Shown here in pieces: positions 1,184 through 5,243 of a stretch of DNA of 18,792 nt. Location of the stretch: contig CAZSWP010000057.1 in the NCBI GenBank assembly GCA_964610875.1, forward strand, positions 1 through 18,792. The letters are read 5' to 3'. The stretch's first letter is position 1. Each line of letters starts with the position of its first letter. Both the position numbers and the translations under genes were made by a program. The notes under the pieces are model-generated. The model saw nothing but the letters and a program-made list of their open reading frames with translations, searched no databases and was not told where the DNA came from. Origin of the DNA: an uncultured archaeon. Lineage in GTDB: Archaea; Asgardarchaeota; Thorarchaeia; Thorarchaeales; Thorarchaeaceae.

Positions 1184-1264
1184 TCCTATCACCTTTGTGG
1201 ATATAGAAATGCAGAGTGCTCCAATTTAAGGAGTGTTATTATTCAAAAAGAAAGGAAGACTGGA

Positions 1265-1975
1265 TTAACCTACATCCAGTCTTGTATTCTCAAGTAGAGT
1301 CTGTAAAGGTATGTCGAAGAATTCTCCTGTTGGTAATGAACGTCGAACTGTCATCGGCAATACTCCAGATGCAAGCTCTAGTTCTGCCAAGGTGAAGAGC
1401 TCATTGGGTGCTTTAGTCATATCTATGAGAACTGGCGCGCCCATTGAAATCTGTAACGCGCGTGCTCCGATTATTCTCGCTTTTTCAAAGCGTGTGAGCC
1501 ATTTTGGACCAGCTGGTACGCCCATGCCTTTCTTTTCTTCCTCCAGTCCCGTTTTTAGCGATGTTCGCTCTGTTACTGTTTTGATTTCTTCACCTGGAGG
1601 TAATTCATGGATATCTGGGTCCGGTTCTGGTGCTTTCTTTCGTTTTGACCTCTTTGGTTTCGTTGGATCGAATTCGCCTGATTCGATTTTTTCCTGGAGA
1701 TCAGCTGCTTCACTAAGAACCCCTTCAGCTTTTGATACACTAAGTCCCTGAATGGCTTCTGCGAGTTCCTCAGCAGGTGTGTCAAGGACTTCTTCAATTG
1801 TGTCATATTCTGCTTCGACGAGTTTTTCTGCTGTCTTAGGGCCAACACCTGGAATATTAGTGAGAATCTCTTGTTTCTTTTCCTTCGATAAATCACTATA
1901 ATCTATTGCTGTTTCTTTTTCCTCGTCTTTGCCCTTCTCATCGTCTTTTTTCTTACTTTTGGGTTCTTTCGACAT
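1265..1975 (-). CDS. rpoK: DNA-directed RNA polymerase subunit Rpo6 (RpoK/RPB6) with N-terminal helix-hairpin-helix extension
   Basis: C-terminal WLTRFEKARIIGARALQISMGAPVLI...ELASGVLPMTVRRSLPTG is the Rpo6/RPB6 core. The N-terminal part contains LTNIPGVGPKTAEKLVEAEYDTIEEV...IQGLSVSKAEGVL, a tandem HhH (HHH_5-like). Confidence 0.93.
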   Translation of the reverse strand: MSKEPKSKKKDDEKGKDEEKETAIDYSDLSKEKKQEILTNIPGVGPKTAEKLVEAEYDTIEEVLDTPAEELAEAIQGLSVSKAEGVLSEAADLQEKIESGEFDPTKPKRSKRKKAPEPDPDIHELPPGEEIKTVTERTSLKTGLEEEKKGMGVPAGPKWLTRFEKARIIGARALQISMGAPVLIDMTKAPNELFTLAELELASGVLPMTVRRSLPTGEFFDIPLQTLLENTRLDVG

Positions 1976-2011: not shown

Positions 2012-3649
2012 CTATTCGTCGTCCATATCTCCGCCCATATCGCCTGGTGGGCCACCCATTCCGCCGCCACCTTTTGAGCTGATAACGTCATCAATCTTTA
2101 AGATCATTTGTGCTGCTTCAGCTGCTGACATGACGATTTGTCTATTGACTAGAGCTGATTCAATAACACGAACTTTCTTCATGTCATCAACTTTTCCTTT
2201 GTCAATATTTACACCATGAGTGACTTTTCCTTCAGTGTGAGCAGTTCTTAGGGAAACGATGATGTCGATTGGATCGAGACCAGCATTATCAGCGAGAGTT
2301 TCTGGTAGGCCTTCAATAGCTGTTGCAAATGCATTAACTGCATATTGTTCTCTACCCTCAAGTTTCTCAGCATAGTCTCTAAGTTCCTTAGCAATCTCAG
2401 CAGCTAAGGCTCCTCCTCCATATGTAACATATGGATGGACGACAACATCCTTGACGACATTAAGTGCGTCGTTAAGTGCACGGTCTACCTCATCAACAAT
2501 GTGGTCTGTGCCACCTCTTACGATGAGAGTAACAGCTGATGACTTAGGTGTGCCTTCAATGAAGAGCATCTTGTCATCACCGACAATGCGTTGCTCAACT
2601 AACTTTGCTTTTCCAAGGTCTGATGCAGTCAGATTAGCTATCTTAGAAATAATTGTTGCACCAGTTGTCTTGTGCAATCTTTCAACATCTGATTTCTTGA
2701 TTCTTCGTACTGCTAGAATGCCTGCTTTGGCAAGGTAATGCTGAGCTACATCATCAATCCCCTTTTGGGCAATGACAACATTTGCACCAGAATCAATAAT
2801 TTGTTGAACCATGGTTTTTAGCATCTGTTCTTCTTCGTCAAGGAACTTCTGCATCGACATCGGGTCAGTTATAGAAATTTTTGCATCGAATTCGGTCTTT
2901 GTGACCTCAATTGGGCATTCGAGCAATGCAATCTTTGCACTCTCTGCGCGTTTTGGCATTCCGGGATGAACTATCTCTTTGTCAAGAATAATACCTTTTA
3001 CAAGCTCGGTCTTAGATACTGCAAGACCCTTTTGCTTCTGTCTTGGTATATTATCCATGTCAAATTCATCATCTGGACTGCGGTCTTTCTCGATTGCCAA
3101 CACTGCATCGACAACAACCTTTGCTAGGTCGTCTCTTGAAGTAGATACAAATTTGCTGGACATCGATGTCTTTGCAACATCCACGAGGATTTTCTTGTAT
3201 TCCTTATCCTCAGGATCAACCTTCTCTGCAACTTTATCGATGACTTCCAATGCCTTTTCAGCTGCTTTTCTGTATCCGCTGATAATTGTAGTTGGATGTA
3301 TCTTTTGATCGAGCAGTTCTTCAGCAAACTTAAGCAGGTTTCCTGTCAATATTGCAGAAGTGGTAGTTCCATCACCGACTTCAGCATCAACAGTCTTAGC
3401 GACCTCGATAACCATCTTTGCTGCAGGATGTGCGACATCCATCTCTTTCAGAATTGTAGCACCATCATTACTGACAGTGACGTCTCCGAAGGAGTCCACG
3501 AGCATCTTATCCATACCCTTTGGACCGAGTGCAGACTTGACTGCTTCGGCAATCACAATTGCGGCCATAATATTATTCCTTTGAGCGTCTCGGCCACGGG
3601 TTCGCTCTGTGTCCTCTCTCAATACAAGGATTGGTACTTGTTGACTCAT
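2012..3649 (-). CDS. ths: Thermosome subunit (group II chaperonin), 545 aa
   Basis: Motifs [54 protein letters not shown] and a GGM/acidic tail. Start re-assigned to ATG 3649 ([10 protein letters not shown]), preceded by a GGAGGT SD at 3662-3657; the ORF track's 43-aa extension is unlikely. Confidence 0.97.
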
Positions 3650-3781: not shown

Positions 3782-4735
3782 CTATAGGATAAAAACGTTG
3801 TCAACTGGTACATTTCTTCTTATAGTAGATGGTCTCTGGAGAATCACATTATCTCCTTTCTTGGCACCAAGGATTTCTGATATGTGGGGACATTTTGCTC
3901 GCGTGATATAGTATGTTTCAACACCTATGTTTTCTTGAATCTCCGGAAAGGTCTCAATATTTGCTTGCCCTTTTGAGATGACAAGGTCTGCCTGTTCTAT
4001 CAGTTTGATGAATTCATCACTGACCCATTGCAATGGCACACCATGTGCCCATGCACCGGTATCAGCTATTCTAGATATTCTCTCAATCTCAATTCCCTCA
4101 ACATCTTCTCGTGTGGCATCATTAGCCATTGCTTTCCCTTTTACCACATATGTTATCTTCCATCCGTGCTCATGTAAAATATGGAGTAGTGGAATATCGA
4201 AGTATGTTTCTCCTGCATTATCTGCAAGATAGACAACTATCCCTGGTGCTCCATTAATAGTGAACCAGAGTTGTTTTGAATTATCAATGGCAAATCCTCG
4301 TTCAAGGATATTGAAAAATAATGAACTCAATTTCTGAAGTTCAGGTTCATGTCCTGCAGTATTGAAATCTATTACATTCCCAACAATTGCAGCTGCTATT
4401 GCTGCTCTAAGCTTGTCGTATTTCTCTAAAGTTTCAATATGTTCCAGTATTATAGGCAATGCTTTCTTTGCGGCATCATTACTCATTCTTTTGATTTCTA
4501 GATAAGGATCATCAACACCCGCTTTGTTGTATAATTCTTGATATAGTCTAATACTCAAAGGTGCAGGTTCAAGTCTTTTGGAAAACCCCTCTGACAGTAT
4601 CTTGTAGGCATAAGAGAACAGCTCGAATTGTTTTTGCTCATTATTGGAGAGTAGCGGTATTAGTGTCTGTAGCGTGTTCAATATGCAAGTGGAACAATCT
4701 GGAATGAGCGGGACTCGAATTCTATTGTTACTCAT
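3782..4735 (-). CDS. DUF89/ARMT1-like metal-dependent damage-control phosphatase
   Basis: N-terminal CxxC (DCSTC), DPYLEIKRMSN, GNVIDF, DNAGETYFD, NDAT and KGQANIE. Start re-assigned to ATG 4735 (MSNNRIR), with a GAGGAG SD and an 8-nt overlap with the end of the upstream gene. Confidence 0.9.
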   Translation of the reverse strand: MSNNRIRVPLIPDCSTCILNTLQTLIPLLSNNEQKQFELFSYAYKILSEGFSKRLEPAPLSIRLYQELYNKAGVDDPYLEIKRMSNDAAKKALPIILEHIETLEKYDKLRAAIAAAIVGNVIDFNTAGHEPELQKLSSLFFNILERGFAIDNSKQLWFTINGAPGIVVYLADNAGETYFDIPLLHILHEHGWKITYVVKGKAMANDATREDVEGIEIERISRIADTGAWAHGVPLQWVSDEFIKLIEQADLVISKGQANIETFPEIQENIGVETYYITRAKCPHISEILGAKKGDNVILQRPSTIRRNVPVDNVFIL

Positions 4736-5243
4736 CTGAGTAATTCTCCTCTTCAGGTGGTCCATCAGACTCATGTCTTTTCACCATAAGATATGCATCC
4801 TCACCATCTCGATAGTATCCCTTTAGAACTCGTTTTATCTCAAAGTCAAGACTCTCATAGATTCCAATTGCAGCTTTGTTTGTCTTTCTAACCTCAAGGA
4901 AGAATTCTGAAACACCATATTCAACCATCCCCTTCATTCCTGCATGCACCAATGCAGTTCCAACTCCTAATCTTCGCTTTTCCTCTAAAACTGCAATTGA
5001 TACAATATGTCCTTTCTTTACTGGGAATTTGTTATAACTAGAAAGACCTCTTTCAATTCTACACATTATGTAGCCGCAGACTTCTCCATTACATTCTGCA
5101 ACTATGAATGATTTTGGAGCGTGATAATGAAGACCAAGAAAGAATTGGTCTGGATAGTTCTCAGGTAAACATGACCGATTTATTTTCACAACTGAACCAA
5201 TATCGTCTCTGGTGAATTGTCGGATGCCAATTTGAGCACACAT
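4728..5243 (-). CDS. ard1: N-alpha-acetyltransferase, Ard1/Naa10 (RimI-like GNAT)
   Basis: LPENY, GYIMCRIE, GHIVSIAV, RRLGVG (acetyl-CoA binding), LEVRKTN and YYRDGEDAYLM, all characteristic of archaeal Ard1 and eukaryotic Naa10. Confidence 0.92.
   Translation of the reverse strand: MCAQIGIRQFTRDDIGSVVKINRSCLPENYPDQFFLGLHYHAPKSFIVAECNGEVCGYIMCRIERGLSSYNKFPVKKGHIVSIAVLEEKRRLGVGTALVHAGMKGMVEYGVSEFFLEVRKTNKAAIGIYESLDFEIKRVLKGYYRDGEDAYLMVKRHESDGPPEEENYSDE

Follow-up and report, generated by a model that had tools for sequence, protein, structure and literature searches.

A tandem helix-hairpin-helix domain on a conserved linker extends the RNA polymerase subunit Rpo6 in one family of Thorarchaeota

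To our knowledge, the usual view of archaeal RNA polymerases is that they contact promoter DNA only via TBP, TFB and TFE and through the cleft of the enzyme. In bacteria, the C-terminal domain of the alpha subunit (alpha-CTD) reads UP elements and activators. The Sulfolobales have a lineage-restricted polymerase appendage with a lysine-rich tail, Rpo13, and the C-terminus of the Sulfolobus protein is a non-specific binder of double-stranded DNA that stabilises the polymerase on DNA (PMC3479171). In eukaryotes, an N-terminal tail projects from the clamp base on RPB6 and is a proven protein-binding platform for the PH domain of TFIIH p62 (PMC8754651). RPB6 (Rpb6, RPABC2) is the counterpart of archaeal Rpo6 (RpoK) and bacterial omega, and archaeal Rpo6 is usually 52–120 amino acids (aa) long (PMC13257274). 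A long Rpo6 N-terminus in Thorarchaeota, with a helical module predicted by AlphaFold3, was reported by Shematorova and Shpakovski (Int J Mol Sci 2026;27:4679; PMC13257274), who cite the helix-hairpin-helix (HhH) fold paper of Shao and Grishin. Here we describe an Rpo6 of the same protein family, encoded by the rpoK (rpo6) gene of an uncultured member of the Thorarchaeaceae in an 18,792-nt stretch of DNA (contig CAZSWP010000057.1, assembly GCA_964610875.1), which we call the window. The bare observation is the same as ours and is already in print, in one sentence and without experiment, and the family is functionally uncharacterised. To it we add the RadA-like affinity of the domain, a linker motif, the limit of the fusion to one family, a convergent fusion at the C-terminus and the recurrence of the HhH cassette on other proteins.

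The gene is complete and lies on the minus strand at 1265..1975 (236 codons, ATG start, TAA stop at 1265-1267), as a single open reading frame of the length given by the initial annotation, which was made from the DNA letters alone. Its product consists of a charged N-terminal tail (residues 1-30; 1886..1975), a five-helix HhH domain (residues 31-98; 1682..1885), a linker (residues 99-151; 1523..1681) containing a basic/proline motif (residues 105-127; 1595..1663) and an Rpo6/RpoK/Rpb6 core (residues 152-236; 1268..1522), all read from the minus strand. The last of these is an intact, standard Rpo6 core. It matched the NCBIfam RpoK equivalog NF002207 at residues 152-234 (E 1.5e-26, 92.5 bits against a cut-off of 71), the Pfam family RNA_pol_Rpb6 (PF01192) at residues 158-207 (30.3 bits against 26) and RpoK/Rpb6 chains in the PDB (E 4e-14 to 1e-9). 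Foldseek superposed the model on Rpb6 and RpoK chains, among them Rpb6 in Pol II, with a root mean square deviation (rmsd) of 1.3 Å over 73 residues and a probability of 1.00. The core had been expected near WLTRFEK at nt ~1501, and Trp159 of this motif maps to nt 1501. What sets the protein apart from a typical archaeal Rpo6 is ~150 additional N-terminal residues that include a folded domain. The Rpb6 core is sited at the clamp base, beside the stalk side of the enzyme (PMC8754651), a position that adjoins Rpo5 and the TFE platform (PMC13257274). From the conservation of the core we infer that the Thorarchaeota protein is incorporated at the same place.

A PF01192 search of the 3.75-Mb genome, which is 95% complete, found one Rpo6 and no second, short one. 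Thus, the 236-aa protein is the working Rpo6 and not a paralog. The lack of a second Rpo6 also speaks against an artefact, in which mis-assembly or an incorrect gene call would have joined two genes. Hundreds of independent assemblies, single-contig genomes among them, show the same frame without interruption and with a conserved start, and fused homologs are also found on contigs of 0.5–3 Mb. We regard the artefact reading as effectively refuted, its probability being close to nil. Open reading frames that overlap rpoK in other frames (for example 1311-1751 on the plus strand and 1573-1896 on the minus strand) had no support and were taken as spurious. Two database proteins of 122–158 aa, P0159 and P0175, were considered as free-standing proteins made of the HhH domain and the linker. 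In both, similarity to the family breaks off exactly within the KSKRKK motif and unrelated sequence follows. Such a pattern is typical of frameshifts, and the most likely explanation is an error of reading frame or assembly in an AAG/AAA stretch rich in homopolymers, not a split gene.

Residues 31-98 form a real tandem (HhH)2 domain, with two HhH motifs and a connector helix. Pfam HHH_5 matched residues 37-92 (E 5e-11, 43.4 bits against a cut-off of 27), and the hairpins are G43-V-G45 and G77-L-S79. The tandem HhH had been placed at nt ~1870-1690 by its hairpin segments IPGVGPKTAEKL and IQGLSVSKAE; both are found in the translation, and the HhH motifs lie at nt ~1855-1724. A full-length AlphaFold2 model, computed from an alignment of 76 sequences, shows a disordered tail at residues 1-30, five helices at residues 31-98, an extended stretch and a confident Rpo6 core. 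The predicted local distance difference test (pLDDT) score of the tail is 36–62, and its length and sequence are variable. As Foldseek with the full-length model gave Rpb6 cores only, the N-domain was modelled separately. This again gave five helices, with a pLDDT of 93.8 and a predicted template modelling (pTM) score of 0.78, in agreement with the expectation that the N-terminal region would model as HhH.

The best Foldseek matches of the N-domain were RadA N-domains, with an rmsd of 1.0–1.1 Å over 57–59 residues and 37–43% identity. Further matches were the (HhH)2 domains of Topo V, the NusA acidic repeats AR1/AR2 (template modelling (TM) scores 0.69–0.81), UvrC and ERCC1/XPF. A family profile run against the PDB gave E values of 3e-13 for Topo V, 3e-12 to 2e-10 for RadA/Rad51, 5e-8 for haloarchaeal L32e and 5e-4 for NusA. 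The nearest kin of the domain are the N-domains of RadA/Rad51 and Topo V, not bacterial alpha-CTD. The RadA/Rad51 N-domain is the best fold relative, the difference being that Rpo6 has no recombinase core. We also considered an origin from the RadA of the same genome, together with a polymerisation motif of the RadA type behind the domain, and found no support for it, as only the first hairpin region resembles this RadA (43% over 37 aa).

The initial annotation had proposed an alpha-CTD-like appendage. As a functional analogy this stands: in both cases a small HhH-type domain is tethered by a linker to a polymerase subunit, although the subunit is another one and the terminus the opposite one. 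As a statement of homology it does not. Among the 60 PDB profile matches listed and the top 50 Foldseek matches of the N-domain there is no alpha-CTD, and PF03118 (alpha-CTD) was not among the Pfam matches of Rpo6 at E values up to 1. The Pfam RNA_pol_A_CTD score exceeded its cut-off only in P0178, a convergent C-terminal form described below.

To compare the parts of the protein we calculated mean pairwise identities per segment over 120 homologs. The N-terminal tail (residues 1-35) varies from 16 to 126 aa in length and has an identity of 0.37, the HhH segment (residues 36-96) is 61 aa long in all homologs with an identity of 0.65, and the core (residues 152-234; 82–83 aa) has an identity of 0.78. 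Seven positions of the HhH segment are invariant (G45, P46, K51, A72, G77, S79 and K82), and position 47 is always K or R. The linker (residues 97-151) has an identity of 0.61 overall, and the motif at residues 105-127 (22–24 aa) reaches 0.76. This motif, K-x-K-S-K-R-K-K-A-P-E-P-[DE]-P-x-x-H-E-L-P-P, is near-invariant, with R112 and P120 found in every homolog, and is kept even in the most divergent members, P0149 and P0150. Its basic part is the patch KPKRSKRKK that the initial annotation had pointed out, at residues 106-114. The same annotation had taken the linker to be flexible, which does not agree with its length of 54–56 aa in 120/120 homologs. Since this length is near-fixed and the motif is about as conserved as the core, the linker is more than a passive tether.

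In the AlphaFold2 model the pLDDT is ~60 for residues 101-120 and 75–90 for residues 121-150, with a short helix at residues 143-150. Together with the near-fixed length and the high conservation of the linker, the higher values in its second half are what would be expected of a structural or assembly element, in which linker and domain would pack permanently on Rpo5 and on Rpo1's Rpo6-interacting domain (RID) and so stabilise the enzyme. Extra contacts between Rpo6 and Rpo5 and between Rpo6 and the RID are present in the Thorarchaeota AlphaFold3 model (PMC13257274). However, residues 101-120 are modelled at low confidence, and two findings described below, namely that another family has its fusion at the other end of Rpo6 and that the HhH copy number varies, are at odds with one precise docking site for the domain. 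We consider such an element quite unlikely. A complex prediction of residues 28-135 with Rpo1'' (A5), the Rpo6 core and the long Rpo5 (A4) gave interface scores (ipSAE) of 0.03 and 0.01 against a mark of 0.32, which counts neither for nor against a contact.

Several ideas about the origin and use of the linker motif were examined. A regular-expression scan of the six-frame translation found the motif once in the genome, in rpoK, and the idea of a docking peptide shared between proteins was dropped, as the whole-genome six-frame scans place it in rpoK only. By eye, HELPPGEE had seemed to resemble a human RPB6 segment. A profile of residues 97-158 had ribosomal L5 as its best match in the PDB, at an E value of 1.1, and matched no Rpb6 tail there; a relation of the linker to the eukaryotic tail was rejected on this basis. 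In a BLASTP comparison with the 153-aa Rpo6 of the sister family the alignment covers only residue 147 onward. Thus, the motif is specific to the family. Insertion of the HhH domain into an older, homologous linker was dropped as well, as the motif cannot be aligned with the N-extension found in the sister family.

Like the eukaryotic RPB6 tail, the whole arm extends this subunit at its N-terminus. The tail in eukaryotes is acidic and disordered and has no folded domain, whereas the Thorarchaeota arm has one. Residues 1-30 are likewise predicted to be disordered, but the net charge of segment 1-35 is 0 in this ortholog (family median -6), and the fusion is absent from the other Asgard families sampled.

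In the database, 573 proteins of ~215–250 aa have the same HhH-Rpo6 architecture, which is also visible in precomputed Pfam annotations. Those with a name are called RpoK of Thorarchaeota, a few being labelled Loki-, Hod- or Promethearchaeota by their submitters, and those labelled as Thorarchaeota RpoK are 57–70% identical to the protein of the window. We further searched 400 Asgard genomes, in which the family of the window (family f1) is represented by 85 other genomes, next to 32 further families. Almost full-length matches were found in ~78 of the 85, so the fusion is not peculiar to this assembly. None of the other 32 families gave the full architecture: their matches begin at residue ~105/136 (mostly ~140-155) and run to residue 234. 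Six f1 genomes gave only weak, non-Rpo6 matches. When five of these were searched again with PF01192 there was no Rpb6 match at all, which indicates that the gene is missing from the assemblies rather than unfused. Every f1 genome that has an Rpb6 match in a gene not cut by a contig end carries the fusion.

Some apparent exceptions were inspected and set aside. The short, 90-aa "unfused" Rpo6 of genome G326 is a gene cut by a contig end. In two genomes thermosome and Rpo6 seemed to share one open frame of 786 aa, but the locus has a normal stop and two genes. Where open frames near Rpo6 are longer in other Asgard families, the extra length is non-coding upstream sequence and does not represent a fusion.

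The sister family, for which there is a single genome, has an Rpo6 with an acidic or charged extension and no HhH domain. In other Asgard lineages lysine-rich N-tails of 40–80 residues occur on Rpo6. Two Rpo6 proteins from such lineages, of 160 aa (L026:1739-2221, minus strand) and 131 aa (L027:1928-2323, minus strand), have strongly lysine-rich extensions that are histone-tail-like and lack a folded domain. Judged by this distribution, the N-terminal HhH fusion is a synapomorphy of family f1 and not a general Asgard trait. Because it is limited to one Asgard family, it is a side branch and not a step towards eukaryotic RPB6, and it has no bearing on the origin of the RPB6 tail.

An exhaustive HMMER search of 1.84 billion representatives gave only three full-length fused clusters at 50% identity. 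The same search also returned the reversed order, with the Rpo6 core N-terminal and HhH C-terminal, in two metagenomic proteins: P0178 (237 aa, two C-terminal HHH_5 modules) and P0210 (183 aa, core with C-terminal HhH). Their cores are closest to Asgard family f10, and an Rpo6 of 190 aa with a lysine-rich linker and a C-terminal HHH_5 was found in a genome of that family (G049). Only a subset of f10 has this form. A second Asgard family has independently fused HhH modules to the C-terminus of Rpo6. Copy number varies as well, since the Thorarchaeota family members P0002 and P0003 have two N-terminal HHH_5 modules. That HhH was gained independently at either end, and in variable copy number, argues that as a tethered module on Rpo6 it has a generic function open to selection.

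Rpo6 is not the only protein of the genome that carries the module. HHH_5 modules, usually with lysine-rich linkers, are also present on the ribosomal proteins eS25 and eL32, on subunit A of Topo VI, on a HEAT-repeat protein and on a membrane protein. The 338-aa eS25 (L016:763-1779, plus strand; G000:C14) has an S25e domain and a C-terminal HHH_5, whereas the 296-aa eL32 (L021:895-1785, minus strand; G000:C13) has an N-terminal HHH_5 followed by a lysine-rich linker. The Spo11-like Topo VI-A (L017:1378-3327, plus strand; G000:C21) has three tandem N-terminal HHH_5 modules. The HEAT-repeat protein of 244 aa (L102:349-1083, minus strand; G000:C10) consists of HHH_5, a lysine-rich linker and HEAT repeats, and the multipass membrane protein of 546 aa (L015:115-1755, plus strand; G000:C22) has a C-terminal HHH_5. 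Against the Rpo6-HhH profile, Topo VI-A scored 96 bits as a whole protein (33–39 per module), eS25 49, eL32 43, the membrane protein 37 and the HEAT-repeat protein 36. The N-domain of the genome's own RadA scored 35 bits, below all five carriers. The long form of eS25 is present in 56 of 57 f1 genomes; in the genome of the sister family the match was confined to the S25e part. We conclude that family f1 has distributed a single (HhH)2 cassette among several machines, and that most of these act on nucleic acids. As side observations, the eS25 linker is long and repetitive in Lys, Glu and Pro, with EEKKEETPKKKPAK-type repeats, and four or five tandem HHH_5 modules occur in proteins of other f1 genomes.

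A precedent for (HhH)2 on a core information-processing protein in one archaeal lineage is haloarchaeal L32e, which has an N-terminal HhH (PRK12766; PDB 1jj2, 1s72) and was among the profile matches given above. The eL32 of the present genome has the same architecture, here in an Asgard archaeon. In the case described here the protein that hosts the cassette is a different one, Rpo6.

The presence of the cassette on eS25, where it is family-wide, and on eL32 raises the possibility that the Rpo6 arm is an RNA-binding or coupling module. It could hold the nascent transcript, or link the polymerase to the cassette-bearing ribosomes through HhH-HhH pairing or a shared ligand, and the place of Rpo6 beside the stalk side of the polymerase would suit such a role (PMC8754651). 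We think this unlikely, as (HhH)2 domains classically bind duplex DNA and a DNA enzyme, Topo VI-A, bears three copies. A still bolder reading is that the (HhH)2-plus-lysine cassette serves the whole Thorarchaeota lineage as an addressing module. Carried by Rpo6, by both ribosomal subunits (eS25 and eL32) and by Topo VI-A, it would bring these machines to a common scaffold, which could be the chromosome, or they could bind one another by HhH-HhH pairing of the type seen between NusA-AR2 and alpha-CTD. If true, transcription and translation would in either case be physically organised or coupled in an Asgard archaeon, but we give this reading a very small chance.

The reading that we favour, and to which we give somewhat better than an even chance, is that the Rpo6 arm is a built-in, non-specific grip on nucleic acid, probably on duplex DNA. 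The ancestor of f1 would have gained on its Rpo6 an N-terminal cassette composed of a RadA-N-domain-like (HhH)2, a lysine/arginine patch and a proline/acidic motif. With the core at the clamp base, the cassette would extend from it on the ~55 conserved linker residues. The two hairpins and the post-hairpin residues K47, K51 and K82 may contact the sugar-phosphate backbone of duplex DNA, to which the KSKRKK patch would add electrostatic affinity. The result would be a stronger hold of the polymerase on promoter-flanking or downstream DNA. In this scheme DNA binding, the reach of the arm and the effect on transcription are all put forward as probable rather than as observed.

The tolerance of Rpo6 for HhH modules in different positions and copy numbers fits a generic tethered binder, and that most cassette carriers of the genome handle nucleic acids also counts for a nucleic-acid grip. 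Engineered chimeras of Topo V HhH domains with a polymerase reportedly show higher processivity and salt tolerance. The (HhH)2 domains of Topo V, which are among the profile and Foldseek matches, bind DNA (PDB 8df7-8df9). A precedent in archaea is Rpo13, with the differences that Rpo13 is a separate subunit of unrelated fold near the N-terminal part of Rpo5, whereas here the module is covalently attached to Rpo6.

Four points weigh against a DNA grip. In this ortholog the HhH domain is very acidic, segment 36-96 having a net charge of -11, and the family median is -4 (range -11 to +5). The structurally similar AR1/AR2 domains of NusA bind proteins. The sequence PEP[DE]P..HELPP looks like a peptide-docking motif and is left unexplained by the model, and HhH modules on ribosomal proteins could equally indicate RNA or a shared protein partner. 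The conserved proline/acidic half of the linker is the best hint of an additional contact, either with a protein or within the molecule.

An alternative is a protein-recruitment arm, in which the (HhH)2 domain, the proline/acidic motif or both would bind a transcription, repair or chromatin factor. NusA-AR2, which binds alpha-CTD, can serve as a model for it, and the fold of the Rpo6 domain is close to that of AR1/AR2. The near-invariant and fixed-length motif resembles a short linear docking motif, the N-domain of RAD51 has been seen with a histone H4 tail (PDB 8xbw), and protein binding by an Rpo6-type subunit has its precedent in the RPB6 tail mentioned above. The initial annotation had argued that the acidity of the domain makes protein binding at least as plausible as DNA binding. 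The acidity was confirmed for this ortholog, but the charge varies within the family, so that strong acidity is a trait of this ortholog and a weak argument for protein binding. Recruitment is further disfavoured by the occurrence of the motif nowhere else in the genome, by the unrelated linkers of the convergent C-terminal fusions and by the carriers of the module, as the ribosomal proteins and Topo VI-A share nucleic acid but no obvious protein partner. We consider recruitment rather improbable.

If the arm does bind DNA, this would be the third polymerase with an auxiliary DNA grip of its own, after those with bacterial alpha-CTD and Sulfolobus Rpo13, and it would belong to a lineage that is related to eukaryotes. 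Three findings make the arm a good target for experiments: the independent gain of HhH at the C-terminus of Rpo6 in a second Asgard family, the near-invariant linker motif and the presence of the cassette on ribosomal proteins and Topo VI-A. They also raise the wider question of why f1 attaches HhH modules to information-processing machines.

The genes around rpoK in the window are all on the minus strand. They encode a GNAT acetyltransferase (4728-5243), an ARMT1-like damage-control phosphatase (3782-4774), the thermosome, a group II chaperonin (2012..3649; Cpn60_TCP1, E 6e-179), and, beyond rpoK, a DUF4010/MgtC membrane protein (2-1192). This order is kept in family f1. The order thermosome, rpoK and membrane protein is kept in the sister family, and the adjacency of thermosome and rpoK is also found in a distant Asgard genome (L027). 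The thermosome stop and the rpoK start are separated by 36 nt, and no TATA-like box was seen in this gap. Thermosome and rpoK are therefore likely to be co-transcribed. Just 3' of the rpoK stop there is a T-rich tract (1245..1259, minus strand), which may act as an archaeal oligo-T terminator.

Rpo5, the neighbour of Rpo6 in the polymerase, is itself of an unusual type in this genome (L029:1483-2043, minus strand; G000:C49). It is 186 aa long, compared with the usual archaeal ~80 aa, and consists of a restriction-endonuclease-like N-domain (Mrr_cat, E 2e-6) followed by Rpb5_C, which makes it a long, Rpb5-like form. The genome of the window has one copy, while many f1 genomes have two in tandem that are ~60% identical to each other's query match.

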